Origin: Verrucomicrobiia bacterium
GTDB taxonomy: Bacteria; Verrucomicrobiota; Verrucomicrobiia; Limisphaerales; UBA1319
Direction of reading: 5' to 3'
Assembly: GCA_963664225.1 (NCBI GenBank)
Contig: OY760937.1
Location: 4,512,001 to 4,576,000 of the forward strand
Length of the DNA stretch: 64,000 bases
Positions 1 through 23,790 of this stretch are shown piece after piece. The translations under genes and the position numbers were made by a program. The notes under the pieces were generated by a model. The model searched no databases, had not been told where the DNA came from, and saw only the letters and a program-made list of their open reading frames with translations. Position 1 is the stretch's first letter; each line of letters starts with the position of its first letter.

Positions 1-2
1 AG

Positions 3-8645: not shown

Positions 8646-8921
8646 TTAGCTCGATTTGTCGGCGAGATGCGCGCTGACCGCCTGGGCAATGGTGGAGACG
8701 TTTTGGAGGATCTGACGGGCGATTTCCGGACTGGGGATCTTGAGGCCGTAGGTTTTATCGAGTGCGACAACCAATTGCAGGGCGTCCACCGAGTCCAAAC
8801 CCAGGCTTCCCGGACCAAACAGGAGTTGTTCGTCGCCGATTTCGTCGTCGGTCACCTGCAGCATGAGGTTTTCCACCATCATACGCTTGATTTGCCGCTT
8901 ATAATCCAATTCCGTTTCCAT
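8646..8921 (-). CDS. acyl carrier protein (cluster-specific)
   Basis: Acidic 91 aa protein with the phosphopantetheine motif LGLDSVDAL. Confidence 0.93.
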   Translation of the reverse strand: METELDYKRQIKRMMVENLMLQVTDDEIGDEQLLFGPGSLGLDSVDALQLVVALDKTYGLKIPSPEIARQILQNVSTIAQAVSAHLADKSS

Positions 8922-9652
8922 CAGAGAATTCCACCGTCAATTTTCAGAACTGAGCCTGTGATATAGCCCGCTTCATCACAAGCCAAAAAGCGGATGGCTG
9001 CGGCGATTTCTTCGGGTTTGCCGAACCGCCGCATGGGAATGCGCGATTGCAGGGACTGACGCTCCGGGCCGGTCATTTTCGAGAGCACGTCCGTTTCGAT
9101 GTATCCTGGGCAGAGGGCGTTGACGGTGATTCCAATGCGGGCCATTTCCTTGGCCAGGGATTGGGTCAAAGCCACAACACCGGCCTTTGCGGCGGCATAG
9201 TTGGTCTGGCCTGCCGGTGGAAGCAGCGCGCTCAGGGAAGAGATGTTGATGATCCGGCCTTTGCGCTGGCTGATCATGGCGGGTAACACCGCCTGGCAAC
9301 CGTAAAAAACACCGTTGAGATTTGTGTCCAAAACCTGCCGCCAACTCGCTGGGGTCATGGTGCCCAGGAGCGCGTCATCGTGCGTCCCGGCATTGTTCAC
9401 CAGCACATCCACACGCGTGTCTGCGTCGAGTAATGCATCAACGGCGCCCTTCCATGCCTCTGGAGAGGTCACGTCCAGCGGCACGCATCGGCATCGGCCC
9501 GGATACTCGCGAGTCAGTTGATCCGCGCGTTCCCGCCGGGAACGGACGGCAAGCCAGATGGAGTTCTCCGGGCGCTCCGCAAGGAACGCCTTTGCGACTG
9601 CAATGCCCAGTCCGCCGTTGGCACCGGTAATTAAAATGACGCGTTTATTCAT
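8921..9652 (-). CDS. fabG: 3-oxoacyl-ACP reductase (FabG/ApeQ-like SDR)
   Basis: TGANGGLG, NNAG, GQTNYAAAK (YxxxK), PGYIET, GSVLKIDGG. Confidence 0.92.
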   Translation of the reverse strand: MNKRVILITGANGGLGIAVAKAFLAERPENSIWLAVRSRRERADQLTREYPGRCRCVPLDVTSPEAWKGAVDALLDADTRVDVLVNNAGTHDDALLGTMTPASWRQVLDTNLNGVFYGCQAVLPAMISQRKGRIINISSLSALLPPAGQTNYAAAKAGVVALTQSLAKEMARIGITVNALCPGYIETDVLSKMTGPERQSLQSRIPMRRFGKPEEIAAAIRFLACDEAGYITGSVLKIDGGIL

Positions 9653-10704
9653 GGGGCAGATTGGGCCGGAACCGTTGCGGGTTGAGCGCGTTCAAAACGC
9701 GCTCCAATCGCCTGTTGACTGCCGCCGACCAAACTGATGTTCACGCCAATGTATGGTCCCTGCATCAAAGCATCAACCCCGGCGACACATTGCCAGGCGG
9801 CGGCGGCCATCAAACCTTCGCCCAGGATTCGTTTCGGGCTCAGGCGCGGATTGGTCCAATCGCGCCATGCCGCCAGTTCCGGCGCGCTGGAACGGAAGCT
9901 TTCGCTGGTGCCGTCGCAGAGCAGGTCGCCGGATTGATTTGCCGGCAACTCGCTGCGCATTGACTTTACAGCGGCAGTGCGGCAAGTGTGGTGGGTCATT
10001 GAATGCGCACTGGTAATGGCGGTCAGACCGGCCCCGATGGACCAGGCGGGATTGAGACTCAAGCACAAGGCGCCGGCACCCCCGCTGAGGATTGCCGAAT
10101 GTTCCAGGTGCCACAGCGCGTCGGCCAGCAACCAGTTGGTTTCCTCGGCGCCCACCACGACGCAGGCATCGACCTGCCGGTCCTCCAGCCAATCAATCGC
10201 GAGCGAGAGTCCCTGCAGGAACGTGCCGGGATCGCCGACCAGGGTGTAAACGGACGGTGTGTCGCCCAACAAGGCGCTCACATGGCTGGCCGGCGCCGAG
10301 AAGACCGTTTCAGGAAACAGGAGCGGGCTGGCCGTGGCCGGATCCTGGAGCGCTTCCGCCCAGAACCGGGAGGAATAAAGCACACATCCGGCATTGAGAC
10401 AGGAGATCACGCCCAGACGGCAATGGGGCCCGGCAATGGATTGCACTCGGGCCACAGCTTCCAATGTGGCCGATGCGGCGTAATGCGTAATGGGACTGGC
10501 GCGCCTTAAACGTGGATGGCTGAGAAATGCGGGACGACCGATTGGCGCAGGCACCGGGCGCGATCGCAACGGCTTGCTCCAGCCGGGTCTGAGCAATGGT
10601 TCAACCGGAAGTGGAACGCCCTGACTCAATGCCTGACGCATGGCCGCCACATCCCAGCCCGCTGGTGACACTGCTCCCACGCCGCAGACAAATACCTGGC
10701 TCAT
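9649..10704 (-). CDS. ketosynthase chain-length factor (KS-like, no catalytic Cys; ApeC-like)
   Basis: KS fold (GVGAVSPAG, SPLLFPETV, VVGAEE, LGEGL). The Cys position reads LVGDPG. ATGA overlap with the KS gene. Confidence 0.85.
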   Translation of the reverse strand: MSQVFVCGVGAVSPAGWDVAAMRQALSQGVPLPVEPLLRPGWSKPLRSRPVPAPIGRPAFLSHPRLRRASPITHYAASATLEAVARVQSIAGPHCRLGVISCLNAGCVLYSSRFWAEALQDPATASPLLFPETVFSAPASHVSALLGDTPSVYTLVGDPGTFLQGLSLAIDWLEDRQVDACVVVGAEETNWLLADALWHLEHSAILSGGAGALCLSLNPAWSIGAGLTAITSAHSMTHHTCRTAAVKSMRSELPANQSGDLLCDGTSESFRSSAPELAAWRDWTNPRLSPKRILGEGLMAAAAWQCVAGVDALMQGPYIGVNISLVGGSQQAIGARFERAQPATVPAQSAP

Positions 10705-11939
10705 GGCCACCTCCGAAAAAGCAGTGTGGCGTTGATTCCACCAAACCCAAATGAGTTTGAGAGCACCACGTTCAATGTTGCATCTTGAGGTTGTCGCACC
10801 ACAGGAAAGTTGCAGGCGGGATCGGGAGTTTCAACGTCGATTTCCGGCGGCAGCCACTGTTCCCGAAGCGTCATGAGACAAACGACGGCCTCCGCTGCTC
10901 CCGCTGCGCCGAGCAAGTGCCCGACGCTGGCTTTGGTGGAACTGACTGGCAAAGTTACCGCCCGCGCGCCGGCCCAACGGTTGATGGCGGTGGCTTCGGC
11001 AGAATCGTTCAAAGGCGTTCCTGTGCCGTGGGCGTTGATATAGTCCACCTCGGCCGGCTCGATGCGGGCCGACTTGCAGGCCAGATTCATCGCCGCCAGT
11101 GCGCCGTCCCCCTGAGGATGGGGCTGGGTCAAATGATGCCTATCGATGGTCGAACCGTAACCGATGATTTCTCCCAGGATGAAGGCACCACGGCGCCTGG
11201 CATGCGGCAAGGACTCCAATGCCAGCACACCTGCTCCTTCGCCCAAAAGCAGGCCGTTGCGAGCGGCATCAAACGGACGGCATGTCGTTGGTGAAAGCAC
11301 CTGAAGCGAGTCGAAGCCCGCATAGACCATCTGGCTGTGGGCATCGTAACCCCCGGCCAAAATTCGCTCCGCATGGCCGTGGCGAATCATCTGCCAGGCG
11401 AGCCCGACCGCGTCGCTGCCCGAAGCGCAGGCGTTGGACACAATGCGCACCGGCCCAGTGAAACCCAAGGCTTCGCTGACGGCCCGGGCCTGGGTCTGCG
11501 CCTGGTAATGGAGCGCGCGGGTGGGTTGGCGACCATGGTGGCTGGGAGTTTCCACCGCCTGACGATAATAATCCTCGCCCAGGTTCATGCCGCCAGCCGT
11601 GGTTCCGAGTACGAACGGCAAATCTTCCGCAGACTGCCAACCCGATTGCTCCCAGGCTTCATGGGCGGCGAGCAGAAGCAATTTCGCCCCACGATCCAGC
11701 CGAGCCGCCTGCCGCGTGGTCAACTGGCCCATGGGGATGCTCTGTGGCAAATCCACCTCCGCGGCTAATTTGACCTTTTGGCGGCTGACATCAAAAAGAG
11801 TCACAGGGCGCGCGGTTGTGCGACCGACGCGAAAGCCCCCTGCATTGCTTTTCCAACCAATGCCCAAGGCCGAGACAATACCGGCACCGGTGATCACCAC
11901 TCTCGGCGGTTCGGCGGGTCTATTTATCGGATAGAGCAT
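10701..11939 (-). CDS. fabF: beta-ketoacyl-ACP synthase (FabF/ApeO-like)
   Basis: SNACASG (Cys), NAHGTGT, GHLLGAAG, SNSFGFGG. Intact Cys-His-His triad. Confidence 0.93.
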   Translation of the reverse strand: MLYPINRPAEPPRVVITGAGIVSALGIGWKSNAGGFRVGRTTARPVTLFDVSRQKVKLAAEVDLPQSIPMGQLTTRQAARLDRGAKLLLLAAHEAWEQSGWQSAEDLPFVLGTTAGGMNLGEDYYRQAVETPSHHGRQPTRALHYQAQTQARAVSEALGFTGPVRIVSNACASGSDAVGLAWQMIRHGHAERILAGGYDAHSQMVYAGFDSLQVLSPTTCRPFDAARNGLLLGEGAGVLALESLPHARRRGAFILGEIIGYGSTIDRHHLTQPHPQGDGALAAMNLACKSARIEPAEVDYINAHGTGTPLNDSAEATAINRWAGARAVTLPVSSTKASVGHLLGAAGAAEAVVCLMTLREQWLPPEIDVETPDPACNFPVVRQPQDATLNVVLSNSFGFGGINATLLFRRWP

Positions 11940-13245
11940 GTCGCGCAAGTTTATGTACGCTTTGGCGAAAGCCAAGGTTCATTGGGTAAAAAAGGTTCTT
12001 CCACGCGGTGGTGCCCCAGAGGCGTTTGACGATTGAGGGAATGGTATAGACCTCTTTGAGGGCGCCGAAATAGCCCCTCAGAAGTTGATCTGGAGTGAAG
12101 TGTTTTGGCTGAAACACCACATGGTTGGCGTCATAGAGGGACCAATCGCGGCTGATAATACGGCCCTCATCCTCCAGGCGTTTGTGCAGCCGCGTGCCGG
12201 GATAAGGAGTGAGAATCGAAAAATAGGCCACCTCGAGCTTGGCCTTTTCGACGAAGTCCAGGGTCCGATCGAAAACGCCCTCATCATCCGTGTCGAAACC
12301 GAAAACAAACGAACCGTCGATGCCAATGCCGTGGTCATGAATGCGATGCACCACGTCCATATAATCCTGGGGCCGGTTGACGCGTTTGCCCACCGACTCG
12401 AGGGTTTGGGACGAGAGCGTTTCGAAACCGAGAAACAGCCCCCGGCAACCGCTTTGCTGACAAAGTTTCAACAGAGCGTCGTCTTTGGCGATGTTCATTG
12501 AAGTCTGGCCGAACCATTGCAGGCCCATATCACTGATGCGGGTCAGCAGTTCGTGAGCATACGCACGATTGCTGATGATGTTGTCATCGACAAAGAAAAG
12601 GCAGTTTTTGAGAGTGAACCGGCCACCAAACGGCTCCAGACCCTGCAATTCGGACAGGACTTCCTCAATGGGGCGGTTGCGGTAACGGCCTCCAAACGCG
12701 CTGGTAACGGCGCAGAATTCACAATTAATGGGACAGCCCCGGGTGGTTTCCACAAAATGCACCGGCAGATATTTTTTGGGCCGGTAGAGATTCCAATCCG
12801 GCTGGGGCAATTCCGCCAGCGGAGGCAAATCGCCCGTGTGCTCGTAGATGGGCTCAAGCTGGTTTCGTTCCAGGTCCCGCAGCAGGCGCGGCCACAGCCC
12901 TTCGGCCTCCGCCACCACCACACTATCGCAATGCTGCAAGGCTTCCTGAGGCAGGCACGATACATGCATTCCGCCCATGACCACTTTGATCCCCTTGCGA
13001 CGAAAGTGGTCGGCAATCTCGTAACCGCGCTGCGCCGTGGTTGTCATGGTGCTGATGCCCACCAAATCAGCTTCGAGTTCCAAGTCGAGAGTTTCGACCC
13101 GCTCGTCCACCAGCGTCACATCCCAATCTGGCGGAGTAAGAGCGGCGACTTTCAACAGCCCCAGCGAGGGCATGCGAAAGAAGAAACTACCGCCCATGAG
13201 GCTGTTTTTCGCCAGAGGAGAAATGAGTAAAAGCCGCTTGTTCAT
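11920..13245 (-). CDS. cobalamin-binding radical SAM enzyme (class B methyltransferase-like)
   Basis: N-terminal B12 domain (PSLGL, DLVGIS, GGMHVS). TRGCPINCEFC motif, FVDDN, TPYPGT. ATGA overlap with the upstream rSAM gene. Confidence 0.92.
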   Translation of the reverse strand: MNKRLLLISPLAKNSLMGGSFFFRMPSLGLLKVAALTPPDWDVTLVDERVETLDLELEADLVGISTMTTTAQRGYEIADHFRRKGIKVVMGGMHVSCLPQEALQHCDSVVVAEAEGLWPRLLRDLERNQLEPIYEHTGDLPPLAELPQPDWNLYRPKKYLPVHFVETTRGCPINCEFCAVTSAFGGRYRNRPIEEVLSELQGLEPFGGRFTLKNCLFFVDDNIISNRAYAHELLTRISDMGLQWFGQTSMNIAKDDALLKLCQQSGCRGLFLGFETLSSQTLESVGKRVNRPQDYMDVVHRIHDHGIGIDGSFVFGFDTDDEGVFDRTLDFVEKAKLEVAYFSILTPYPGTRLHKRLEDEGRIISRDWSLYDANHVVFQPKHFTPDQLLRGYFGALKEVYTIPSIVKRLWGTTAWKNLFYPMNLGFRQSVHKLARHALSDK

Positions 13246-14654
13246 TTGAAAGGGCTGCTGTCGGCCCCTTGGGGCCAAAGTCGCTGGATGACTGAAAAAT
13301 AACTCCACAACGGGCCAACCACACCGCGTCGGCGCAACCGTTCGACCAGTTCGGTGTAGGCGGGTGCGGGATCGCCCACCACCCAATTGGGCGAAAGGCG
13401 GGCGAATTCACGCAACTGTTCAAACACCGCGCCATTATTCAAGCCCGGAGCCAGATAGTAGTGTGGATAGAGCAGAACTTGCGCTGGTTGAATCTGGCCC
13501 TCCACCACTGCCCGGTTGTAAAGGTCGGTTTGTGGATAGATACGCATTCCCACCACGGCCATGATCGTCGAGTCGCGAAGTTGCTTCGCATTCTCAAAGC
13601 CCTGGCGGAGGCTTGCCATGGTTTCGCCAGGACCGCCCGCGATGAGAAAGTGGCAGCAATCCATATGCGTTTTGCGGGCCAACTCCGTCGAAAACAAAAT
13701 ATCTTCGAAGCTGAATCCTTTCTGGTAGGCGTGGAGCACGTCATCGCAAAAACTATCCGAACCAAATTCGACATGGGCCAGTCCGGCACGGGCCATGAGC
13801 TGCATCAGTTCGGCAGTCAGACCTTGCGGACGCAGGAAGCAGCCCCAGGAGATTTTGACACCCCGACGAAGGATGGCTTCACAAATCTCCTCAACATGCT
13901 GTCGGGAGGAATTGAACACCGAATCGACAATGAACGCATATTTGACGTTCAAGCGCTCCAGTTGGGAAAATTCCTCGGCCACCAGTTCCGCTGGACGCCG
14001 CCGATGTCCCCGTCCCTCCACAACCGGATAGGTGCAGTAGCAGCAGCGATAGGCACAACCGCGCTGGGTTTGGACGTTGAGGACTCCGCTGGTGTTTCGA
14101 TAGCGGTCCACCACCGCAACAGGTCTGTCCGATTCCATCACCACACTGTCGAAAGGCCGTGGCTCGGGCGGATTGATCATTACCTGACCATTCTTTCGAT
14201 GAACCAGTCCTGGAATACCCTCCCAGTTTTTGCCTTCTTCAAGGCTTTGAATTAGGCGCGTCAGGCTCGATTCGCCTTCGCCAGAGATGCCAAAATCGGC
14301 TCCTGAGAGTTCGAGCAATTGGGCGGGGAATATGGTAAAGCCGCTGCCTCCAAGAATAATGCGGCGGACATTATGATGACGGATGGTGGCACAGATGGAG
14401 GGCAGATCGTCGAAGAAAGTCTGTTGTTTGCGGATGATCACATCGTCAATGTTCCGCAAGGATATGCCCACAAAATCTGGGTGAAAGGATTCGAGCGTCG
14501 CATCGAGCTGGTCGGCCTGGTCGAGAAGATCCAGCCAGAGGCATTCATGGCCGGACTGGCGCAGGGCCGCCTGCAGATAGGTCAGCCCCAAGGGAAAGAC
14601 CCGCTCGGGATTCGCACACCGGTTGGCGCTAATTAGAAGAATCCGGCTCGGCAT
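13242..14654 (-). CDS. lipid-biosynthesis B12-binding radical SAM protein (resembles TIGR04072, the ladderane-cluster family)
   Basis: ILLISAN...VFPLG, GISLRNID, GGSGF, VQTQRGCAYRCCYCTYP, VDSVFN, GMRIYPQT. Family recognised from memory. Confidence 0.85.
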   Translation of the reverse strand: MPSRILLISANRCANPERVFPLGLTYLQAALRQSGHECLWLDLLDQADQLDATLESFHPDFVGISLRNIDDVIIRKQQTFFDDLPSICATIRHHNVRRIILGGSGFTIFPAQLLELSGADFGISGEGESSLTRLIQSLEEGKNWEGIPGLVHRKNGQVMINPPEPRPFDSVVMESDRPVAVVDRYRNTSGVLNVQTQRGCAYRCCYCTYPVVEGRGHRRRPAELVAEEFSQLERLNVKYAFIVDSVFNSSRQHVEEICEAILRRGVKISWGCFLRPQGLTAELMQLMARAGLAHVEFGSDSFCDDVLHAYQKGFSFEDILFSTELARKTHMDCCHFLIAGGPGETMASLRQGFENAKQLRDSTIMAVVGMRIYPQTDLYNRAVVEGQIQPAQVLLYPHYYLAPGLNNGAVFEQLREFARLSPNWVVGDPAPAYTELVERLRRRGVVGPLWSYFSVIQRLWPQGADSSPFK

Positions 14655-14791
14655 CGTTTTTCATGCCCCAACGTTTGAATTTGATGCAATGCGCCACATC
14701 TAGGACTGAGGTTCTAGCCGTGAACACGTCCCAGGCGCAACATTAAATGGATTCTCTTCAATTATATCGGCCAATCCTGTAGATTGGGGTT

Positions 14792-15523
14792 GTGGATTCG
14801 AATTGGCCTGAAAGGGGCGCGGCTGTGGTTCCGTGCATTAACGAAGCCGCCACCATCGGAAGAGTGGTGGGCGAACTGCGCGCCTTTCTGCCGAAGGTCA
14901 TCATTGTGGACGATGGCTCGACCGATGCAACCGCCGTCATCGCGACCCAGGCAGGGGCGGGAGTGGTGCGCCATTCAAGGAACTTGGGCAAAGGGGCCGC
15001 TTTAAAGACAGGCTTTGCCGCAGCCATCGATGCGGGCGCCGAATGGGCCGTGATGCTGGACGGGGACGGTCAGCACAAGCCAATGGATATTCCCGCCATA
15101 CTAACCTGCGCACAAACCACCGGTGCGCCACTTGTGGTAGGGAATCGGATGCACGATAAGCGAGCCATTCCCTGGCTACGACGGCAGGTGAACGCAGGCA
15201 TGAGCCGCGCAATCTCGCGTCATCTCGGCCATCATCTTCCAGATACGCAGTGCGGTTTTCGATTTGTGGACCTGAAAGTGTGGCGCACGTTGTCGATCCG
15301 AAGCTGCCATTTCGAGATCGAGTCGGAGATGCTGGCGGCTTTCATTCTCGCGGGCTGCCGGGTGGAGTTTGTTCCGATTCAGGTGGTTGGGTGCGGGCCA
15401 TGCAGCCGTATTCGCCCAATTCGAGACACCTGGCGCTGGCTCAAATGGTGGGTCTCGCTCCTCAAACCTGTCGCATTCGACTTGCGCGAGAGTCCCCCGG
15501 CAGCGCATCCTCCTGCCCAATGA
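14792..15523 (+). CDS. glycosyltransferase family 2 (DPM1-like)
   Basis: VVPCINE, VDDGSTD, NLGKGAA, LDGDGQH, DTQCGFR, FEIESE. Confidence 0.92.
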   Translation: MDSNWPERGAAVVPCINEAATIGRVVGELRAFLPKVIIVDDGSTDATAVIATQAGAGVVRHSRNLGKGAALKTGFAAAIDAGAEWAVMLDGDGQHKPMDIPAILTCAQTTGAPLVVGNRMHDKRAIPWLRRQVNAGMSRAISRHLGHHLPDTQCGFRFVDLKVWRTLSIRSCHFEIESEMLAAFILAGCRVEFVPIQVVGCGPCSRIRPIRDTWRWLKWWVSLLKPVAFDLRESPPAAHPPAQ

Positions 15524-15885
15524 TACCGACTGCCTCCAGTCTCAAACCAGTGTCGGCCCGTCGTGGTTGGGCAAATCGCCTGGCACGGAAGGTCCTGTCT
15601 CTTGTGGTCGCGGGGATTGTACTGGGTTGGGCCTACGAATGGGCGGCCGTGCGTTTCTACCAGGCAGACCGTACGGCAGGTTTCTGGCACGGAACGATGC
15701 ACGGTGCGTTAATGCCCGCGGCCCTGCCGAGCCTGTTGTTGGGCAAGGACGTCCCTATTTTCGCCGGAAACAACACAGGGCGCACTTACAAACTTGGCTA
15801 CATCACCGGTATTAACGCCTGCGGATTGCTCTTCTTTGGCCTGGCCTTCCGAAATCCAAAATCGACCACCGACCCAGAGGCGTAG
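15520..15885 (+). CDS. small hypothetical membrane protein, translationally coupled to GT2
   Basis: ATGA overlap at 15520-15523. Hydrophobic helices with GFWHG..HG and YKLGY..G motifs. Confidence 0.7.
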   Translation: MIPTASSLKPVSARRGWANRLARKVLSLVVAGIVLGWAYEWAAVRFYQADRTAGFWHGTMHGALMPAALPSLLLGKDVPIFAGNNTGRTYKLGYITGINACGLLFFGLAFRNPKSTTDPEA

Positions 15886-15900
15886 GAACTGGCGATTCGT

Positions 15901-16635
15901 TCAGTAAAACCAACCGCGATACACCTCGATGACATCCAATGGGCCACCCGCCCAGTAGTGGTTCTGCGGGAATGAAAACGTCCGTTGCGTCTGGTCATAA
16001 ACCAACTGAGTCGGCGCAGCCGGTTGGTTGGGATCATACGCAGAGAAGCAAATATTCTCATCCGACCTGGCCAGATTAAAGAGTGTGATGCCATGATTGA
16101 TGGTCAATTGCGGAAAGCGAACCAGATGGACAATGGGATCCGGTTTGGTTTTAAACGCATGAATCAGCCGTTCGGCCATGTCCTCCTGATGATTGCGTGA
16201 AATCGGGAAAACCATCCGCCAATGACTGCGCAGGAAATAGGATTGCCAGGCGCCGCCGCAATGGGCCTTGAGGACCGGTTCCTGGGCGCGGCTGAAGGAT
16301 CGAAGACAGTCGTAGCCTGGAATCATTATCCGACTGCTTTCAGGGCTGGGCACCCTTGGGTCGCGCTGAACAACCGCGCGAATCAACCGGGCATAAGTGG
16401 AGGCGTCCGCCACAGGTTCGTTCGGGGCAAACCGGGCATGATAAAAGAACTGCCGGGCGGAGCGCACCATTACAAAGCAGCGGTGCGCATAGGTTGGGGG
16501 AGGGGAGTTGCGCCGGGTGGTCAGGGCTCCGGTTGCGGGATCGAACCGATACTCCCAGAACAATTCGTTGGCGAATGCAAAGGTGTCCTGCTCGAAGTTG
16601 AAAGGGCGGTTCTGGTGGTCAACATCGCAAATCAT
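15901..16635 (-). CDS. hypothetical protein with a papain-like Cys-His-Asp arrangement
   Basis: RCFVM (Cys), INHGI (His), AYDPN (Asp). 244 aa ORF filling the gap in the cluster. Confidence 0.7.
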   Translation of the reverse strand: MICDVDHQNRPFNFEQDTFAFANELFWEYRFDPATGALTTRRNSPPPTYAHRCFVMVRSARQFFYHARFAPNEPVADASTYARLIRAVVQRDPRVPSPESSRIMIPGYDCLRSFSRAQEPVLKAHCGGAWQSYFLRSHWRMVFPISRNHQEDMAERLIHAFKTKPDPIVHLVRFPQLTINHGITLFNLARSDENICFSAYDPNQPAAPTQLVYDQTQRTFSFPQNHYWAGGPLDVIEVYRGWFY

Positions 16636-16674
16636 GCTTGCGGCAGACTCTAGCGATTGATTAGGAAGGTGTAA

Positions 16675-18012
16675 ATGCTGTTCAACCTATGGAGCGAAAT
16701 CGCCCGCCATCACGCCAGTGAACCGGCCCTTTGGGACCTGACTGCCGGTCGGCGATGGAGCTTTCGAGACTTGGCCGAAGCGGCTGAGAGATCCGGCCCC
16801 GTTACTCAACCCATGGTCCACCCGACTTTTCGTTCCCTGACGGAACAAGGCCTGCGAGAGAGATCCGGCCCCGTTACTCAACCCATGGTCCACCCCCAGG
16901 GAAACGGCGCGGAATTCATCCTGACCGTTTTACGGGCCTGGCGGGACGGAGTCGTGGTCTGTCCATTGGAACCCTATCAAACCCCGCCGCCGATACCCCA
17001 GCCACCTGACGGCTGCAAGCATCTGAAGTTAACGTCGGCCACTTCTGGCGCGGCGAGAATGATTGCCTTCACGGAAGAGCAGTTGGCTGCAGACGCCATT
17101 AATATCGTTCAAACGATGGGATTGCGGCCTGAGTGGCCGAATCTGGGTGCAATCTCAATGGCCCATTCTTACGGATTCTCAAACCTCGTGTTGCCACTCT
17201 TGCTGCACGGAATTCCGCTCATCCTCGCGCCATCCGCGCTGCCCGAGATGGTCCGTCGTGCCGCTGCAGATCACCCCTTCGTGACACTGGCGGGGGTGCC
17301 GGCGCTGTGGAGGGCCTGGCACGAGTCCGGAGCCATTCCGGCCAACGTTGCGCTGGCCATCTCAGCGGGTGCGCCTCTTTCCATTGAGCTGGAGCGGGCG
17401 GTGCATTCGGGCTGCGGTCTGAAAATCCATAATTTCTACGGTTCGTCCGAATGCGGCGGGATTGCCTACGACGACACCACGACGCCCCGCGTTGAGGAAG
17501 GTCTAGTTGGGCGTGCCATGCGGAATGTGGATTTGTCTTTGACCAATCAAGGCTGTCTCGAGGTTCGCAGCCGGGCCGTGGGAGAAACCTATTGTCCGGA
17601 AATGAACGAGTCCCTGGGAAACGGGCGTTTTCAAACGAGCGACCTTGCAGAATTTCATAACGGCGCGCTTTATTTGCGTGGACGACTCGGCGATCTCATT
17701 AACGTGGCCGGCCGCAAAGTCTCACCCGGAGCCATCGAACAGGTCCTGCGGGGTCATCCCGCCGTAAAGGAATGCCTCGTTTTTGGCGCGCCCGATGTGC
17801 AAGGCGAGCGGACGGATCGCATTGTGGCGTGCGTGGTGGCCAATGGCAGCGGACTGGCGAATGCTGAGCCTCTCCGGCAGTTTCTGCTGCGCAGCCTGCC
17901 CGCCTGGCAGATGCCCCGGGACTGGTGGTTTGTGGATTCTTTAAGTCCCAACAGCCGGGGTAAAATCTCCCGTGCGGAATGGAGACAGCGATACATCACG
18001 CGCCAGGAATAG
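16675..18012 (+). CDS. class I adenylate-forming enzyme (acyl-CoA/acyl-ACP ligase, ApeH-like)
   Basis: LTSATSG, HSYG, SAGAPL, YGSSECG, FQTSDLA, GRLGDLINVAGRKV, GKISR. Confidence 0.88.
   Translation: MLFNLWSEIARHHASEPALWDLTAGRRWSFRDLAEAAERSGPVTQPMVHPTFRSLTEQGLRERSGPVTQPMVHPQGNGAEFILTVLRAWRDGVVVCPLEPYQTPPPIPQPPDGCKHLKLTSATSGAARMIAFTEEQLAADAINIVQTMGLRPEWPNLGAISMAHSYGFSNLVLPLLLHGIPLILAPSALPEMVRRAAADHPFVTLAGVPALWRAWHESGAIPANVALAISAGAPLSIELERAVHSGCGLKIHNFYGSSECGGIAYDDTTTPRVEEGLVGRAMRNVDLSLTNQGCLEVRSRAVGETYCPEMNESLGNGRFQTSDLAEFHNGALYLRGRLGDLINVAGRKVSPGAIEQVLRGHPAVKECLVFGAPDVQGERTDRIVACVVANGSGLANAEPLRQFLLRSLPAWQMPRDWWFVDSLSPNSRGKISRAEWRQRYITRQE
16786..16895 (+). repeat. perfect 38 bp direct repeat (16786-16823, 16858-16895) around a 34 bp spacer, in frame within the ligase gene
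   Basis: GAGAGATCCGGCCCCGTTACTCAACCCATGGTCCACCC occurs twice. The peptide ERSGPVTQPMVHP is duplicated. Confidence 0.95.
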
Positions 18013-18507: not shown

Positions 18508-18939
18508 TCAAGGCGCGCCGCTCAATGTGAGATCGGCCTGCAGGACGAGTTGATCACCGACAAATCCCCTGGCGTGCGCCTGAACAAGGCTCCCCATGCG
18601 GCCTGTCAATTGAGCTTCAAGGCGCAGCACTTCTCCGGGGCGGGCTGTGCCTAGAATTTTAACCCCGCGCAATGCGGTCAGCTTCAGCCCTGCGAGCGGC
18701 GGTGTAATGGGATCGCTCTGGGTTATCACTCCAGCCAATTGGGCGGCGGCTTCCACCAGCAGCACGCCAGGAAATATTGGTTCCCCCGGGAAATGACCTT
18801 TCAGGAACGGTTCGTCTCCGCGAACCCGGTATTCTCCCACGCCTTCCCTGCCGGGGATCAGGCTTAAAAGCCGGTCCAGAAACCGGAACTCAGGGCCGTG
18901 TGGCAGAGTTTTGAGCGCCGCTTCCAGAACATTCTCCAT
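18508..18939 (-). CDS. fabZ: 3-hydroxyacyl-ACP dehydratase (FabA/FabZ hotdog fold, ApeI-like)
   Basis: LPHGPEFRFLD, GHFPGEPIFPGVLLVE, RPGE. Confidence 0.9.
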   Translation of the reverse strand: MENVLEAALKTLPHGPEFRFLDRLLSLIPGREGVGEYRVRGDEPFLKGHFPGEPIFPGVLLVEAAAQLAGVITQSDPITPPLAGLKLTALRGVKILGTARPGEVLRLEAQLTGRMGSLVQAHARGFVGDQLVLQADLTLSGAP

Positions 18940-18943
18940 ACTC

Positions 18944-19624
18944 TTACTTCTTGAGCGGTTCGACCAACTTGGTGTCCGCGTCGAGTTGAACCTCGAACAG
19001 GTCCTTGGGCAATGCCGTGTTCAAAACGGAATGACTGAAATCATTGCGCATGCTGGAGCCATCGCTGAACTGGAGTTCTGTCGAGGATGGCGAGTAGTCC
19101 TTCGTGCTAAAACTGATTTGGAGCTGGCTCATGAACTTTCGCGCAAAGGCGCTTTTGGGCTGAAGGGACAATTGCACAATGTCGTTGGTTTGCACGACCG
19201 ATAAGACGGTGAAGCGCGATTCCAACTCGGCTCGGCTGCGGGGAAAGCTGGCCTCCAGAAGAGCCAGCGCGTCACGCCAGGGGCCGGGAGCGTTTCCGGT
19301 CAGGGGATATTTCTCGGCTCGCTTGAGCTTGGGATACAAAAGCCACAATTGATCAGGCTGGCGCACCGCGATCGTTTGCGGAGGCTGGCCCAGCTCCCAA
19401 CGAAAGTGGTCAGGCACCACGACCCACACCTTGCCGGTCGAAACCAGTGGCTGGGAAAATGTTTTGATCGAACGCGTTTGAACCGCATCAGCAGTCCAAG
19501 TGTGGACGTTGGTCTGCGCGGCGAACCATTGATCCAATAGGGCACTGGTATCGGCCGCCTTGACTGCAGAGTTTCCAACCAACAGAAAACCCAGCAACAC
19601 GGACAGAAACCGTGACACCTTCAT
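18944..19624 (-). CDS. LolA-like periplasmic carrier (ApeL-like)
   Basis: Signal peptide. Q-T-R...STGKVWVVVPDHFRWEL LolA pattern. ATGA overlap with the MMPL gene. Confidence 0.85.
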   Translation of the reverse strand: MKVSRFLSVLLGFLLVGNSAVKAADTSALLDQWFAAQTNVHTWTADAVQTRSIKTFSQPLVSTGKVWVVVPDHFRWELGQPPQTIAVRQPDQLWLLYPKLKRAEKYPLTGNAPGPWRDALALLEASFPRSRAELESRFTVLSVVQTNDIVQLSLQPKSAFARKFMSQLQISFSTKDYSPSSTELQFSDGSSMRNDFSHSVLNTALPKDLFEVQLDADTKLVEPLKK

Positions 19625-22600
19625 AAAGGGGTGGGAGTATTCCCATTGGCTCGATTGCCGCTGGACGCTTTTGCAATCAGCGATGCCTTTGACCAAATTG
19701 GAACAAAATGAAACCATTGGTCCAAATGCTGCCGAATCCGCGGCTCGAATGCACGCAGGATTTGTCGGGTGAGTTCATGCCGGGCTTCCCGGTTGCCCAG
19801 GGTTGCGCGGTCATATTGAAATTCTTGAAACACCTGGGCGAGGTAGCGGCCGTCGGGGCAGCGTAAAACAGTAACCCCGAAAAGGGCGCAACCGGAGGCC
19901 CGCGCCAGTTCGGCTGGTGCGATGGAGGCTTGAAATGGCCTGCCAAAAAGTTCCACCTCGACAGCGCTGGACGGTTGAGGTCGATCCACCAGCAACGCAA
20001 TGATCGCACCTTCCTGCAATCGGCGGATGACATCGACGAAGCCGAACGCGTTGTTGCCAATGACCAGCGTTTCGATCCCCCATCTGGCTCGCGAGGTCCG
20101 GCGCAACTCGGTCAATCCTTCGCCCGGTTCGGCCTGTGTGATGACCAGCAAATTAATTCCATGCTCCCTGAGCAAAAGCGCGCCCACTTCCCAATTTCCC
20201 AGATGAGGCGTCAGGAGTAATACGCCCCGACCCTTTTTTTGAATGTCTGCCAGGGCCGCGGTGGAAATGGCTTCTGTGTTGGTCTGTGGATTGGAAGCGG
20301 CGGCTGTATCAGAGCTTTGAGGACTGTCCACAAATGCGATGGCGGAGGAAATGCCATTTTCAAACCTCCACAAATCCAGAAGTTTTAGCGCAAATTGTTG
20401 ATATAGTCGGCGAGCTGTTCCCTCAGCGCGCTTGCGATCCCCGCCAACCGCAGGCAATAAGTTCTCAATCACCACTTCACGCCTCGGGCGATCCAGCCGG
20501 AAATGAGCCGCCGCCAATACCAGGCAAAACTGTCGGACCAACACCAGCGGCATCATTCGGGTCAGCAGCATCCCCAAGCGCCACAGCCAGGCCCGATACA
20601 AAGCGGAAGGTTTCGTTGGCAGATCGGAGTGTGGAGCGGGGCACTGTTCCGGTAAATCTGTCCGGTTAATGGTCCTACACCACCAGGTGGGCAGCAGGTA
20701 GATCGAGATGAGCATGTTGGCCAATATGCCCATGGCGCAGACCTTGCCCAGACTGGCCATGCCCACATTCGCTGACCACGCCAGGGAACCGAAACCGGCA
20801 ATGGCGGTGCCGCCGCAGAGCAAAAGCGCCCGGCCTATGGAGTTGCGCACCATCGCCACATCTCCTCCATGCCGACGCAGGCCAAGTTGGATGAAAATGC
20901 CATAATCCACCCCGGTGCCCAGAATCAAAGGCAACGCCATTAAGTTGAGCAGATTCCATGTCCATCCGTTCAATACCATGAATGCCAGCAAACACAGGCC
21001 CGAGAGCAGGAGCACCGCAACGCCCAGCAGCACCTCACGAACATTTCGGAAGGCCAGCCACAATGATACCAGCACCAGCGCCACCATGGGCAGTACCACA
21101 AGCCACAGCCGGTCTTTGACGCGTGCCAGTGTCACAGTGCCCAGCAGCGGCCAACCCGACAGGGAAATATGTGCTTTTTCAAACTCATCCGCCAATCGGA
21201 CCAGGCCCGTGTCGGAAACTTGATTGGTGGAGGGATAAACAAGGCCCAGGGCCAGCCATTGATTTGTGGAATGGGCGACAAAACGTTTGAGCAGCCATTG
21301 ACTCATCTGGTTGGTGGGCCACGACACTCCGTTACCGGCGCCCAGTCGCTCCCAGGTTCTCAACAGTTCATCCGTTAGGAATAATGCGTTGGTATTGAAT
21401 CCCTCATGCAAGGCCGCCTCCCGCAAAGGCGTCTCCTGACCTGACAGCCAAAGCGCTGCCGGACGGTTGGCCTCCTGGTTGGCCACGTGCGGCCACAACG
21501 GCGTGGGAATCATATAACCGCTGATTTGCTGGTTGGAACTGGCCCGCGCCAGCAAAGCTTCCGCCCGGCTGAGTTGCTCATACACTTCCGATTCGGTCCG
21601 GCCTGATGCAATCGTCCAGAGCGGATCCTGAGGGATGCCGACCGCCGAAGAGATTTCATCGAGCGCCACCTCCGCTTCTGTGTGCTGGAGCCGAAGTGCG
21701 TCCCCGGAGCGATCCACACCGGGCAAGCCCCGCACAAGTCCCAAAGCCGCCACTAAAATCACCGCCCCGGTCACCAGCAGCCCAATGCGGCAACACCGCG
21801 TCGGCGGATTCCCAGCCCACACGATTCGCTCCGGCGGGGGTGGAAAGAGAAAAGTAATCAACCGGGGACGTGCAATGCCGGGGGGCAGTTGGCGGCGTTT
21901 TGGAAAGAGTGGCGGCAGAAACGCCACCACCATGACCAAGGCCGCCAGGCTCACCCCAATGGCCACCAGCGATCCCAATTGCGCAAGACCGGGCAGGCCG
22001 CCAAAGCTCAACATCAGGAATGCGGCTATGGTTGTGATGGCCGCCCAAAGGATGCTCGGTGAAATGGCGCGACGGATTTCTGGAACGGTTAGTTGCGGAT
22101 GAGCCAGGGCCTCCTGGTAATGGACCACGGCGTAGTCCACGGCCAACCCGAGCAACACCGCTGCGAATCCCAGGCTGATCACGTTGATGGTTCCCAGGAG
22201 AAGACTCCCCAGCCCCAAGGTCGCCACCAGGATGAGTCCCAAGAGCGTCAGCAGCCAGAGCATTGGAAGCCAGCGCCGGTGCGTCAGCCAGAATAGCAGC
22301 GCAATGATGATGGCGGTGCCAATAATCGACCCGCTCAAATCCCGTTGCATGCTCGACGCAATCTCCGCCACAAACGCCGGTCGGCCCGTGTAGCGAATCG
22401 TCACGTCCCGCCATTCGGATTTCTGTGCGCGCGTCTCCTCAACGGTCCGACGAATCGCCTCCAGCCAGTCCACGCAGGCGCGATAGCCGGCCAATGCGGG
22501 GCGAGCCTGGAGAAACACCAATCGAAAAGTGCCGTCGGAGGAGCCAAACATCTGCTGGCCTTGATCGGCGGACATGCCGCTGAAATTCGCCAGTGTCGGT

Positions 22601-23091
22601 AGGTTCAACAGATCGTAGGGATCGAACGCGCGCCGGGCGATGTCCATGGGTGAGAGGGAGGTGGCCAAAGCCTCTCGGGACTCCCCGAGGACCGTGGCGC
22701 GATGGGCAGGCGACAGACGATTGGTCAGGGCGTTGAACACTTCTGGCGGTTGGTTGAACCACAGATATGCAACGATCTCAGCGGCCTGGGCTGGCTGCTC
22801 CATCCAGGGCGGTTGCCAGGAGACTTCGGTAACCAGATTGGTCTGCGGACGCAAACGGGTTGCCAATTCCGCAGCCAGGCTTTCGGTTGTTTCACCGGAC
22901 GGCGCGCGCAAGGTAATGATTAACTCGCGGGCATTGGCAAAATGCTCCTGGTAGAGTTTCAATCCCTGCACGCTGGGAATGTCGGGCGGCAGGAGGTTCA
23001 GGACATCGACGTCGAATCGCAGACGGCCCAACCCAAGCAGCACCAGAACCGCAAGCGGCAGCCACCACCATTTTTTAAACAGCGCACTCAC
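19621..23091 (-). CDS. MMPL/RND-family exporter fused to a C-terminal LpxL/HtrB-type acyltransferase
   Basis: Two TM bundles with GLAVDYAVV and GTGVDYGIF. The C-terminal ~320 aa contain TPHLGNWE, LLVDR, VELFGR, QWFHFVPIW. Confidence 0.88.
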   Translation of the reverse strand: MSALFKKWWWLPLAVLVLLGLGRLRFDVDVLNLLPPDIPSVQGLKLYQEHFANARELIITLRAPSGETTESLAAELATRLRPQTNLVTEVSWQPPWMEQPAQAAEIVAYLWFNQPPEVFNALTNRLSPAHRATVLGESREALATSLSPMDIARRAFDPYDLLNLPTLANFSGMSADQGQQMFGSSDGTFRLVFLQARPALAGYRACVDWLEAIRRTVEETRAQKSEWRDVTIRYTGRPAFVAEIASSMQRDLSGSIIGTAIIIALLFWLTHRRWLPMLWLLTLLGLILVATLGLGSLLLGTINVISLGFAAVLLGLAVDYAVVHYQEALAHPQLTVPEIRRAISPSILWAAITTIAAFLMLSFGGLPGLAQLGSLVAIGVSLAALVMVVAFLPPLFPKRRQLPPGIARPRLITFLFPPPPERIVWAGNPPTRCCRIGLLVTGAVILVAALGLVRGLPGVDRSGDALRLQHTEAEVALDEISSAVGIPQDPLWTIASGRTESEVYEQLSRAEALLARASSNQQISGYMIPTPLWPHVANQEANRPAALWLSGQETPLREAALHEGFNTNALFLTDELLRTWERLGAGNGVSWPTNQMSQWLLKRFVAHSTNQWLALGLVYPSTNQVSDTGLVRLADEFEKAHISLSGWPLLGTVTLARVKDRLWLVVLPMVALVLVSLWLAFRNVREVLLGVAVLLLSGLCLLAFMVLNGWTWNLLNLMALPLILGTGVDYGIFIQLGLRRHGGDVAMVRNSIGRALLLCGGTAIAGFGSLAWSANVGMASLGKVCAMGILANMLISIYLLPTWWCRTINRTDLPEQCPAPHSDLPTKPSALYRAWLWRLGMLLTRMMPLVLVRQFCLVLAAAHFRLDRPRREVVIENLLPAVGGDRKRAEGTARRLYQQFALKLLDLWRFENGISSAIAFVDSPQSSDTAAASNPQTNTEAISTAALADIQKKGRGVLLLTPHLGNWEVGALLLREHGINLLVITQAEPGEGLTELRRTSRARWGIETLVIGNNAFGFVDVIRRLQEGAIIALLVDRPQPSSAVEVELFGRPFQASIAPAELARASGCALFGVTVLRCPDGRYLAQVFQEFQYDRATLGNREARHELTRQILRAFEPRIRQHLDQWFHFVPIWSKASLIAKASSGNRANGNTPTPL

Positions 23092-23588: not shown

Positions 23589-23790
23589 TGTTATTAGAGC
23601 CAGCCTTTGATGAAAGCTTTTGTTTCGCGCTGTGGTCGAAATATTGTGTGAATCTTTGGATGGTCGGGCAATTTGGGCGGAATTGTCCACATCAGCGATC
23701 TTGCCATTCAAGCAAACTGCGGATCGCCAGGGCAAGGTCGTGCCTCGTCCGAACGTCTGGAAGCCATTCCGCTCACATTCCGACGGACCA

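Follow-up and report, generated by a model that had tools for sequence, protein, structure and literature searches.

The locus raises the question of what two adjacent radical SAM genes (rSAM1 and rSAM2) contribute to the beta-ketoacyl synthase (KS) operon that they head. It was approached through the whole stretch of 64,000 nucleotides (the window), related loci, and 151 genomes of the same order as the window.

Gene organization of the locus

The genes of the locus and their neighbours are given below, with "profile" for those assigned by family profile matches.

8646..8921, minus strand: ACP, PP-binding, serine within LGLDSVD
8921..9652, minus strand: KR, FabG-type SDR (profile)
9649..10710, minus strand: degenerate KS-like partner ("CLF"), 353 aa, FabF N-terminus at 23.2 bits
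10701..11939, minus strand: KS, FabF-like beta-ketoacyl synthase, start codon uncertain
11920..13245, minus strand: rSAM2, 441 aa, B12-binding-domain radical SAM protein with DUF4070, C171/C175/C178
13242..13245, minus strand: ATGA overlap of rSAM1 stop (TGA 13244-13242) and rSAM2 start (ATG 13245-13243)
13242..14654, minus strand: rSAM1, 470 aa, B12-binding and radical SAM, CX3CX2C = C200/C204/C207, TIGR04072 member
14655..14791, no strand: intergenic region between the divergent rSAM1 and GT2, tailoring-gene slot in relatives
14792..15523, plus strand: family 2 glycosyltransferase, GT2 (profile)
15520..15885, plus strand: small conserved membrane ORF after GT2, start inferred (mechanical ORF from 15250)
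15901..16635, minus strand: conserved cluster protein, DUF8321/DUF8322 by language-model look-alike
16675..18012, plus strand: AMP-binding ligase, candidate starter-unit loader (profile)
18508..18939, minus strand: FabZ/FabA-like dehydratase (profile)
18944..19717, minus strand: LolA-like lipid/lipoprotein carrier (profile)
19621..23091, minus strand: fusion of an MMPL/RND-type exporter with an LPLAT (lipid A-type) acyltransferase, 1156 aa (profile)
23088..23735, minus strand: conserved hypothetical protein, gene 5' of that for the exporter, 32-64 % identical across related loci

That two genes are present and form a real pair is practically certain. An earlier note on this DNA had described them as tandem, translationally coupled and placed ahead of KS-CLF-KR-ACP. 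The tandem pair and the ATGA overlap were observed and the gene order was confirmed at the coordinates listed; coupling is suggested by the overlap, and the "CLF" label appears to be the weakest part of the gene-order claim. The 353-aa partner had no Pfam match, no BLASTP similarity to the KS and a single PDB match (9s5h_C, E 1.3e-5), and its orthologs in related loci always lie 3' of the KS. If the KS begins at ATG 11939, its frame overlaps the end of rSAM2, stop TAG (11922-11920) included, by 20 nt; an in-frame GTG farther downstream is a possible alternative start. The ATGA overlap and the tight packing with KS, partner, KR and ACP are in keeping with a tailoring role.

No match was obtained for region 14655-14791 in the Rfam search, and no promoter-like consensus site was reported there. 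The membrane ORF is conserved at 38-57 % in related loci (tblastn) and the 15901-16635 protein at 51-74 % identity; family searches returned no match for the former or for the 23088-23735 protein. The cluster contains no enoyl reductase and no phytoene-desaturase-like gene.

Sequence and structure comparison of the two radical SAM proteins

Both proteins are class-B-type: a cobalamin-type Rossmann domain at the N-terminus precedes a [4Fe-4S]/SAM barrel. They share 22 % identity over 368 aligned residues and are therefore clearly different enzymes, which confirms the earlier description of two enzymes with CAYRCCYC and CPINCEFC motifs and N-terminal B12 domains. Both look catalytic, because all three cluster cysteines are kept in each in the alignments. 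Neither reaches the cut-off of any characterised non-lipid radical SAM family, the clustering that the earlier note had named as counting against its idea; the best other matches were BzaD (206.8 bits; cut-off 450) and HpnJ (103.1; cut-off 577.6).

In rSAM1, the CAYRCCYC motif occupies residues 200-207, and Pfam domains are B12-binding (19-134; 54.3 bits) and Radical_SAM (195-349; 64.2 bits). The proposed resemblance to TIGR04072 was borne out over the full length, in a narrow pass (388.5 bits; cut-off 360). The protein is far under the cut-offs of both BzaD (benzimidazole C-methylase; second-best family, 206.8 bits against 450) and TsrM (Trp C2-methyltransferase; 143.8 against 500). The nearest solved structure is TsrM, both by sequence (PDB search; E 2.9e-33, both domains) and in the fold comparison (TM 0.82-0.83), and the two hardly differ in the Fe-S motif region CAYRC..C. 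TsrM places an unusual polar residue, Glu236, between cobalamin and cluster (PMC12931638). Because Tyr209, invariant in alignment A1, replaces it in rSAM1, the latter need not use the non-radical mechanism of TsrM.

According to the relevant sections of three reports, anammox ladderane-candidate clusters contain B12 radical SAM enzymes without a known reaction (PMC10139942, PMC13459092, PMC2649909), in agreement with the earlier note. That anammox reaction may not be what rSAM1 performs, because rSAM1 falls in a divergent Verrucomicrobial subclade (about 330-417 bits against TIGR04072, other classes of the phylum scoring 414-620) and is 30-34 % identical to high-scoring members.

For rSAM2, the mechanical ORF is 11920-13386, with TTG as its first codon; an ATG start at 13245 was preferred, giving 441 aa, and it fits the N-termini of orthologs (alignment A2; P0001 = 441 aa, 100 % coverage). 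CPINCEFC corresponds to residues 171-178. Pfam domains are B12-binding (17-117; 44.3 bits, gathering threshold 32.1), Radical_SAM (165-322; 53.8 bits) and DUF4070 (351-409; 24.3 bits). No curated NCBIfam family was reached (TIGR04014 96.4 against 360; AprD4 46.7 against 500), and rSAM2 is a discrete Verrucomicrobial orthogroup without a curated family. The top PDB sequence match was MgmA/QCMT (MCR glutamine C-methylase, Csp3; E 4e-20), with AprD4 (cobalamin-free diol dehydratase) at E 1.5e-12. The best folds for the AF2 model (pLDDT 88) were AprD4 (TM 0.77, E 2.4e-23), TsrM (0.68) and MgmA (0.64). MgmA and AprD4 have the two-domain fold in common with rSAM2, at 20-21 % identity and with scores far under the family cut-offs; unlike them, rSAM2 ends in a DUF4070 region and lies in a lipid cluster. 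B12 dependence of rSAM2 is not assured, because AprD4, the best fold match of the model, is described as not binding cobalamin (PMC12931638).

The class B radical SAM methylases CysS and TokK share the fold class of both models (TM 0.63-0.68). Crystal structures of the two in complex with pantetheinylated substrates appear in the fold matches of both models, and there is therefore a precedent for B12 radical SAM chemistry on carrier-bound intermediates. They are larger proteins from different pathways; PDB sequence matches to rSAM1 are weak (E 2.1e-7 and E 9.6e-4, respectively), and neither was among those of rSAM2.

Distribution in related genomes and loci

In the order sample, the KS partner was present in 71 of 151 genomes and an rSAM1-like gene in 27. 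The KS partner occurred in 23 of the 27 rSAM1-positive genomes and in 48 of the 124 rSAM1-negative ones, as raw counts from related genomes that are not independent. Hence 48 of the 71 KS-partner genomes lack an rSAM1-like gene, and four of the 27 gave no KS-partner match. An rSAM2 ortholog was found in eight genomes, all of which (8/8) also have the rSAM1-like gene and the KS partner; 19 of the 27 rSAM1 genomes have none.

Three architectures were observed: core only (GT2<>KS; L032-L036), rSAM1 only (GT2<>rSAM1-KS; L030 and L031; 10 of the 80 loci compared) and both genes (GT2<>rSAM1-rSAM2-KS; the window and L009-L013; 8/80). Insertion of rSAM1 immediately before KS was seen in 18 of the 80 loci; among the 23 order-sample genomes with rSAM1 and the KS partner, 8 have it there. 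Elsewhere the tailoring slot holds a HydE-like radical SAM gene (L034, L041) or this together with a flavin halogenase (L029). In the rSAM1 tree, the sister of the window is L030, which lacks rSAM2 (support 100/98), and the label "tandem" requires at least six changes over well-supported branches. Solo and in-operon copies are intermixed, and a basal clade of five members is entirely solo (100/98).

Lone rSAM1-like genes occur in unrelated contexts (L014-L019). Solo copies, 49-56 % identical to rSAM1, adjoin T2SS ATPases, LysR and DAHP synthase, and one (L015) lies near a corrinoid protein with methyltransferase genes. In G240 and G315 rSAM1 and rSAM2 are unlinked; in G240 (one genus) they and the KS partner occupy three distinct locations.

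The pair is thus best read as accessory tailoring and not as part of the core chain-building machinery, because clusters occur without either gene, with rSAM1 only or with both. It is an optional addition to an already catalogued cluster type.

Proposed role and alternative explanations

As inferred from the gene set, the AMP-ligase would load a starter unit; KS, partner, KR and dehydratase would assemble an unsaturated chain bound to the ACP; the acyltransferase and GT2 would attach this to a lipid or sugar carrier; and MMPL and LolA would export the product. The carrier-tethered chain or its head group would be C-methylated in successive steps, radical or TsrM-like: by rSAM1 at first, and afterwards by rSAM2, whose action would depend on the presence of rSAM1. 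Our best explanation, which we favour slightly, is that of accessory tailoring enzymes, with successive C-methylation as the most likely chemistry, in a lipid or pigment pathway of the type-II kind with KS and KS partner. Of its parts, the accessory tailoring role is likely, while methyl transfer as the chemistry stays tentative, at a little under even chances. Four points are our inference: that the enzymes methylate, that their substrate is ACP-bound, the order in which they act, and that the product is a polyene. C-methyltransferases make up most assigned B12 radical SAM enzymes, and BzaD, likened to TsrM, is given as a probable Csp2-methylase; against our reading, BchE, OxsB, HpnJ and "Ladderane" are listed as non-methylating, and structure is said to offer no clear mark separating alkylating from non-methylating members (PMC12931638). 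A further point against it is that in the host genome CobQ over the cut-off and BtuB-family matches were absent and one cobalamin riboswitch was found, so that B12 must probably be imported.

One or both enzymes might instead form C-C bonds, cyclising or cross-linking the unsaturated chain to a ladderane-like or other carbocycle, as hypothesised for the anammox enzymes. rSAM1 passes TIGR04072, a model named for ladderane clusters; the order B12 radical SAM, KS, inactive KS parallels kuste2803-2805 (PMC4790861); the ladderane enzyme is listed as possibly having non-methyl chemistry (PMC12931638, PMC13459092); and the missing enoyl reductase makes an unsaturated substrate plausible. We consider this unlikely, as rSAM1 barely exceeds the cut-off at its low identity to high-scoring members, most KS-partner genomes do without it, the nearest characterised relatives are methylases, and the phytoene-desaturase-like gene of anammox Cluster I and of L021 is absent here. 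A different chemistry could also apply to rSAM2 only, as a cobalamin-independent, AprD4-like dehydratase or other non-methyl enzyme whose Rossmann domain is merely B12-like. The fold match and an NCBIfam match point to AprD4, which is described as non-cobalamin-binding (PMC12931638), but that family score is far under its cut-off, Pfam B12-binding exceeds its threshold and MgmA is the better match by sequence; we regard this reading as improbable.

An obligate heteromeric pair, functioning only as a complex with, for example, one catalytic and one substrate-presenting member, would suit the ATGA overlap and the confinement of rSAM2 to rSAM1-positive genomes. A B12 radical SAM gene also lies directly 5' of high-scoring TIGR04072 genes in other classes and phyla (L021, L022, L024, L025, L094, L106, L110, L111), but these upstream proteins are 31-32 % identical to rSAM2 and not clear orthologs. 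With 19 rSAM1 genomes, the nearest relative L030 included, lacking rSAM2, the genes unlinked in G240 and G315 and both proteins apparently catalytic, such a pair is quite improbable. Just as little probability is given to the idea that rSAM1 belongs to a different pathway, for a cofactor or an unrelated metabolite, and sits in the KS operon incidentally or secondarily. The solo copies beside unrelated genes, their basal clade and the four genomes without a KS-partner match agree with it, whereas the recurrent position immediately before KS, the higher raw share of KS partners in rSAM1-positive genomes, which are not independent, and the mixing of solo and in-operon copies across the tree argue against it.

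Comparison with known systems

The earlier idea of a compact non-anammox model is weakened by its lack of novelty: clusters of the TIGR04072 type are common well beyond the anammox bacteria, with 552 relatives in the genome collection, and Verrucomicrobia "ladderane" clusters are already in print, described as of unknown function (PMC7298704, PMC8692599). For the window cluster, "ladderane" would be a presumptive label. As in the TIGR04072 neighbourhoods of other lineages, rSAM1 occurs with KS, ACP, KR, GT2, acyltransferase and LolA/MMPL; the order here is TIGR04072, second B12 radical SAM, KS, whereas other lineages have B12 radical SAM, TIGR04072, GT2-DUF2062.

Anammox clusters were compared from published gene tables and descriptions. 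In kuste2802-2805 and Cluster I (kuste3603-3608), as here, a SAM radical enzyme, which carries a B12-binding domain (PMC2649909), adjoins FabF and a KS partner that is non-canonical and inactive, on a dedicated ACP (PMC4790861, PMC2649909, PMC10139942, bioRxiv 10.64898/2026.05.19.726425). Unlike them, the window lacks the phytoene-desaturase-like gene, has two B12 radical SAM genes in tandem and export/attachment genes (MMPL-LPLAT, LolA, GT2), and comes from a non-anammox bacterium.

By gene content, the cluster seems to be laid out like an aryl-polyene (APE)/flexirubin-type lipid cluster. APE, flexirubin and xanthomonadin clusters are type-II PKS-like, with KS and inactive partner, KR, dehydratase, ACP, AMP-ligase, GT2, LPLAT, MMPL and LolA-like genes. 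Differences are that flexirubin models are under their cut-offs in the window (FlxB 214 against 340, LolA2_flexi 48 against 125), that the dehydratase matches FabA/FabZ and is not ApeI-like, and that thioesterase, second KS, second ACP and SAM methyltransferase are absent. B12 radical SAM enzymes are, to our knowledge, no APE components, and a full-text literature search found no paper that names aryl polyene, radical SAM and cobalamin together. The gene set of the window otherwise matches that of these clusters, and a flavin halogenase fills the tailoring slot in the relative L029.

Organisation of the rSAM1-rSAM2 operon

Six closely packed genes were called as ORFs on the minus strand in positions 8646-14654 of the window. 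Two proteins with cobalamin (B12)-binding and radical SAM domains, rSAM1 and rSAM2, head this group, and genes for a FabF-like ketosynthase (KS), a 353-aa KS partner, a FabG-type ketoreductase (KR) and an acyl carrier protein (ACP) follow 3' of rSAM2.

13242-14654, minus strand: rSAM1, 470 aa, motif CAYRCCYC
11920-13245, minus strand: rSAM2, 441 aa from the ATG at 13245, motif CPINCEFC; the start agrees with the N-termini of orthologs
9649-10710, minus strand: KS partner, a degenerate KS-like protein

Both rSAM1 and rSAM2 contain the Pfam B12-binding (N-terminal) and Radical_SAM domains, all above the gathering scores, and rSAM2 has DUF4070 as an extra domain. Aligned over 368 residues, the two proteins are 22 % identical. 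The mechanical ORF of rSAM2 begins at TTG 13386, and ATG 13245 was preferred. The stop codon of rSAM1 and the start codon of rSAM2 share the sequence ATGA, so the two genes are probably translationally coupled. If the KS begins at its furthest upstream plausible start, it shares 20 nt with the 3' end of rSAM2. No riboswitch or other RNA match was found by Rfam in 8000-26000 (E <= 0.1), and the counts in a promoter/terminator scan of 8300-15000 were within or below shuffle expectation.

The earlier note had described two distinct B12/radical SAM genes ahead of KS-CLF-KR-ACP, the first resembling TIGR04072. The pair is real and was correctly read at gene and family level. The order of the downstream genes also stands, whereas the name 'CLF' for the KS partner reflects only position and a faint KS likeness in its sequence (23.2 bits against the FabF N-terminus). 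The partner had no Pfam match and no BLASTP similarity to the cluster KS, and its sole PDB match was 9s5h chain C (E 1.3e-5). Entry 9s5h is heteromeric, with two different '3-oxoacyl-ACP synthase' chains (B and C), and is also the second-best PDB match of the cluster KS (E 1.9e-78). It may be the anammox FabF2/FabFmut heterodimer; its code is absent from the text (supplements aside) of the bioRxiv anammox FabF preprint and from the literature searched.

Family and fold of rSAM1 and rSAM2

TIGR04072 ('lipid biosynthesis B12-binding/radical SAM protein') is an 'equivalog'-type model with a curated cut-off of 360 bits. When rSAM1 was scored against it, a full-length match of 388.5 bits was obtained (E 3.3e-116; residues 4-451 on profile positions 1-439 of 443), which bears out the resemblance. 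The margin over the cut-off is small, and a genome-wide search gave 387.9 bits, with rSAM1 as the only match above the cut-off in the 5.78-Mb host genome besides eight weaker B12-rSAM-like matches. The next-best families were BzaD (206.8 bits; cut-off 450) and a TsrM-type model (143.8 bits; cut-off 500). Pfam scores were 54.3 bits for PF02310 and 64.2 bits for PF04055, and C200, C204 and C207 of the CX3CX2C motif are invariant across 13 homologs. With KS, KS partner, KR and ACP directly 3', rSAM1 has the lipid-type context associated with TIGR04072; this context is not general among its close homologs, which include the solo copies L014-L019.

The closest solved relative of rSAM1 is TsrM, both in sequence (E 2.9e-33 over both domains, with a near-identical Fe-S motif) and in fold (TM 0.82-0.83; AF2 model, pLDDT 84.6). 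Glu236 of TsrM, named as an unusual residue in the available part of a 2026 review (PMC12931638), is replaced in rSAM1 by an invariant Tyr209. The same part of the review describes BzaD as a likely Csp2-methylase, TsrM-like (PMC12931638).

rSAM2 scored below every cut-off tested: TIGR04072 (74.1 bits; 360), HpnJ (103.1; 577.6), MgmA (TIGR04014; 96.4; 360), BchE (85.9; 481), PhpK (82.8; 600) and HpnR (74.9; 650). Its best PDB sequence match was MgmA (E 4e-20). The AF2 model of rSAM2 (pLDDT 88.0) was closest to AprD4 (TM 0.77), followed by TsrM (0.68) and MgmA (0.64), with OxsB, CysS and TokK as further matches; the rSAM1 model also matches TsrM, MgmA, OxsB, CysS and TokK. Both enzymes are thus predicted to have a class B-type layout, in which a Rossmann-type B12 domain precedes the radical SAM barrel.

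The wider rSAM2 family is large and diffuse (2598 representatives at E <= 1e-30, the full-length ones at most 48 % identical), while its orthogroup is discrete. The best 120 database proteins are 71-96 % identical, and the named orthologs among them are generic 'radical SAM' entries from Verrucomicrobiota or Limisphaerales. Against the nearest representatives, the orthologs of rSAM2 group in a single clade (SH-aLRT 99).

Distribution within the order

An even set of 151 genomes of the same order, host included, was analyzed. The KS-partner ortholog was present in 71 genomes, a TIGR04072-like gene (E <= 1e-60) in 27 (19 of them above the cut-off) and an rSAM2 ortholog (61-73 % identity) in eight. 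The distribution is nested: of the 27 genomes with rSAM1, 23 also carry the KS partner, and all eight rSAM2-positive genomes have both rSAM1 and the partner. The partner also occurs in 48 of the 124 rSAM1-negative genomes; related genomes in these counts are not independent. No rSAM1, rSAM2 ortholog or KS partner was present in the only other genome of the genus (93 % complete) or in one further genome of the family.

Three layouts were observed next to a divergent GT2 glycosyltransferase gene: KS-partner-KR-ACP without any rSAM gene (loci L032-L036), rSAM1 followed by the KS (L030 and L031), and rSAM1-rSAM2-KS (the window and L009-L013). Among the best 80 loci of the species-genome collection, this tandem occurs in eight and rSAM1 lies directly 5' of the KS in ten. 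In one genome (G240) rSAM1, rSAM2 and the KS partner are in three separate places. Solo rSAM1 homologs (L014-L019) are equally similar (49-56 % identity) and lie in unrelated contexts. For related loci, Pfam was applied to 132 ORFs from 10 loci, within 7.5 kb of the match; ORFs were picked by GC3, as greedy longest-ORF choice gave antisense ORFs in GC-rich DNA.

Other tailoring genes were also seen in the slot between GT2 and KS. In L029 (genome G243) a Trp-halogenase-family flavoenzyme and a HydE/PylB-like radical SAM protein are encoded at 13453-16122, in L034 (G235) a HydE-like gene stands alone at 6523-7617, and in L041 (G335) a HydE-like gene at 8728-9990 lies 5' of rSAM1-rSAM2. The HydE-like proteins of L034 and L041 scored 179-192 bits on HydE (cut-off 254.6). 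A search of the host genome, run without a positive control, gave no HydE-like rSAM match at E <= 1e-10. At L015 (G234; 8932-14539) a solo rSAM1 homolog (56 % identical) is divergent from genes for a corrinoid protein (B12-binding and B12-binding_2), a homocysteine S-methyltransferase-family protein and two URO-D/MtaA-like proteins; these form a methyl-transfer set with no relation to lipid synthesis. Verrucomicrobial-type rSAM1 (56-59 % identity) was also found in L039, labelled Bifidobacteriaceae, which has the entire tandem operon, and in L046, labelled Nitrospirota. Mis-binning of both contigs, rather than gene transfer, is the probable explanation.

Phylogeny of rSAM1

A quick tree was drawn from 92 rows, of which one was the window and 91 were distinct sequences taken from 102 loci; matches below 1150 nt, rows with internal stops and identical copies were left out. 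A careful tree had 44 rows, comprising the Verrucomicrobial clade, three Fibrobacterota and three outgroup rows. Tandem, rSAM1-KS and solo copies were intermixed on both trees, and L030, which has no rSAM2, is the sister of the window (support 100/98). The tandem label requires at least six changes on well-supported branches, and none of 200 bootstrap trees gave it a single origin. Together these results indicate that rSAM2 has been repeatedly gained or lost and that rSAM1 is independent of it.

The wider family in other lineages

In the phylum sample, TIGR04072 was matched above the cut-off in 20 of 201 genomes, with 414-620 bits in other classes of the phylum against 359-388 in the class of the host. 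In those other classes a B12-rSAM gene lies directly 5' of the TIGR04072 gene (31-32 % identical to rSAM2, cysteines retained), and GT2-DUF2062, acyltransferase, third B12-rSAM, ACP and KS genes lie 3'. The absence of a Pfam Radical_SAM match had suggested that the upstream B12 proteins of other lineages lack the Fe-S cysteines; this was refuted, as all three cysteines are present. In L022 (G017) the upstream B12-rSAM is separated from the TIGR04072 gene by a gene for a 23S rRNA-intervening-sequence-type protein (PF05635; 10370-10777). Geobacteraceae-type loci run in the order ACP, a pair of B12-rSAMs (39-43 % identical to rSAM2), a gap, TIGR04072, KR and KS. TIGR04072-type relatives were found in Fibrobacterota, Nitrospirota, Thermodesulfobacteriota, Bacteroidota, Spirochaetota and others. 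Arrays of B12-rSAM genes beside KS and ACP are therefore a recurring, catalogued theme.

Possible roles of rSAM1 and rSAM2

To our knowledge, no reaction has been assigned to any B12 radical SAM enzyme from a fatty-acid or polyketide-type lipid cluster. Because the distribution is nested and patchy, we infer that rSAM1 and rSAM2 decorate a product which the core cluster would be able to make in their absence. Among characterised enzymes, the closest to rSAM1 are the C-methylases TsrM and BzaD, and the closest to rSAM2 is the C-methylase MgmA; CysS and TokK are class B precedents on pantetheine-tethered substrates, according to PDB entry titles. On these grounds and the nested distribution, we tentatively favour, at somewhat under even confidence, successive C-methylation of an ACP-tethered chain or head group, in which rSAM2 would act on or after the rSAM1 product.

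Other readings are each improbable. It is unlikely that the TIGR04072-type enzyme, with or without rSAM2, forms C-C bonds by non-methylating radical cyclisation on a growing unsaturated acyl-ACP, as proposed for ladderane synthesis; the family membership of rSAM1 is shared with that proposal, and its nearest characterised relatives are methylases. For rSAM2, a cobalamin-free enzyme is a small possibility suggested by AprD4, its best fold match, which is reported in the available part of PMC12931638 to be cobalamin-free despite a B12-type domain; the B12-binding domain of rSAM2 is above the gathering score. A role of rSAM1 outside the cluster pathway would fit the equally similar solo copies, and we give it little credence, with rSAM1 directly 5' of the KS in several loci. 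An obligate rSAM1-rSAM2 complex would suit the overlapping genes and seems just as doubtful, since rSAM1 does not depend on rSAM2 on the trees.

The host encodes at least nine B12-rSAM-like genes. No CobQ match above the cut-off and no BtuB-family match were found in its genome, and the only cobalamin riboswitch match (59.3 bits) is at 1127085-1127335 of contig C1, outside the window. The host therefore probably imports B12 and may depend on it.

Surrounding cluster and comparison with known systems

Divergent from rSAM1 are genes for the GT2 glycosyltransferase, a small conserved membrane ORF, a conserved DUF8321/8322 look-alike and an AMP-ligase; beyond these, the minus strand encodes a FabZ-like dehydratase, a LolA-like carrier, an MMPL-acyltransferase fusion and a conserved hypothetical protein. 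The look-alike (15901-16635, minus strand) had no match in local Pfam or NCBIfam, was placed by a protein atlas in DUF8321/DUF8322 clusters of Verrucomicrobiota (score 0.99) and accompanies the core cluster at 51-74 % identity. The fusion (19621-23091, minus strand) joins an MMPL-type exporter and a lipid A-type acyltransferase in one 1156-aa ORF and is retained in relatives. The N-terminal part of the AMP-ligase gene contains a perfect 38-nt direct repeat (16786-16823 and 16858-16895, 72 nt or 24 codons apart), which duplicates the peptide RSGPVTQPMVHP in frame and looks like a recent duplication; it came from a direct-repeat search, and Tandem Repeats Finder found nothing in this 5' part. 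Directly 3' of the ACP, a 650-aa secreted protein with Ig-like domains (6513-8465, minus strand) consists of two similar halves ('LVNVNFAAYDL...' repeated as 'LFNVNFAAYDL...') and is not conserved alongside the cluster in relatives. Positions 1-6400 and 25900-64000 hold carbohydrate, transport and regulatory genes unrelated to the cluster, and no starter-unit genes.

The gene content (KS with inactive partner, KR, DH, ACP, AMP-ligase, GT2, LPLAT, MMPL and LolA) matches the aryl-polyene/flexirubin type of pigment-lipid cluster. Flexirubin-specific models were not reached (FlxB reductase 214.1 bits, cut-off 340; LolA2_flexi 48.2, cut-off 125), and the dehydratase matches PF07977 only, whereas an ApeI-like dehydratase is a flexirubin/aryl-polyene feature. 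The cluster has no enoyl reductase, thioesterase or phytoene-desaturase-like gene, and no Amino_oxidase or FAD-oxidoreductase match was found in the 17 proteins scanned in 6513-25947.

In the anammox clusters kuste2802-2805 and kuste3603-3608, SAM radical enzymes stand beside FabF and an inactive FabF, and a B12-binding domain is present in at least one of these radical enzymes (available parts of PMC2649909, PMC4790861, PMC10139942 and bioRxiv 10.64898/2026.05.19.726425). The Cluster I type has a phytoene-desaturase-like flavoenzyme beside ACP, FabZ, FabF, inactive FabF and B12-rSAM; the window cluster lacks this flavoenzyme, and an amine-oxidase-type flavoenzyme is present in the relative L021. 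In the excerpts of PMC10139942 and PMC13459092, heterologous work has not delivered the reaction of the anammox enzymes and no TIGR04072-type member has an established one. 'Ladderane' is listed among B12-rSAMs of unknown transformation in the excerpt of the 2026 review (PMC12931638), and 'ladderane' clusters are described, in the parts seen of PMC7298704 and also PMC8692599, as well represented in Verrucomicrobia with the role unassigned. The identifier 'TIGR04072' was not found in the literature search. Anammox bacteria have no genetic system, and the ladderane question is about two decades old, as stated in the same excerpt of PMC10139942.

The window cluster is a variant of this known kind of cluster and not a new system. 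It is distinguished by the pairing of a divergent TIGR04072 subclade with a second, private B12-rSAM orthogroup, and by a naturally occurring series in which clusters carry neither enzyme, one of them or both. Within one Verrucomicrobial order the rSAM enzymes are modular additions to a common core cluster, so the 'minus', 'plus one' and 'plus two' versions that heterologous expression or a comparison of lipids would need exist naturally. Should the enzymes be methylases, the gain for lipid tailoring chemistry would be modest; if not, the series bears on the ladderane problem, and were C-C bond formation true, this nested series, with the HydE-like rSAM/halogenase variants, could reveal the reaction of the family in non-anammox bacteria.
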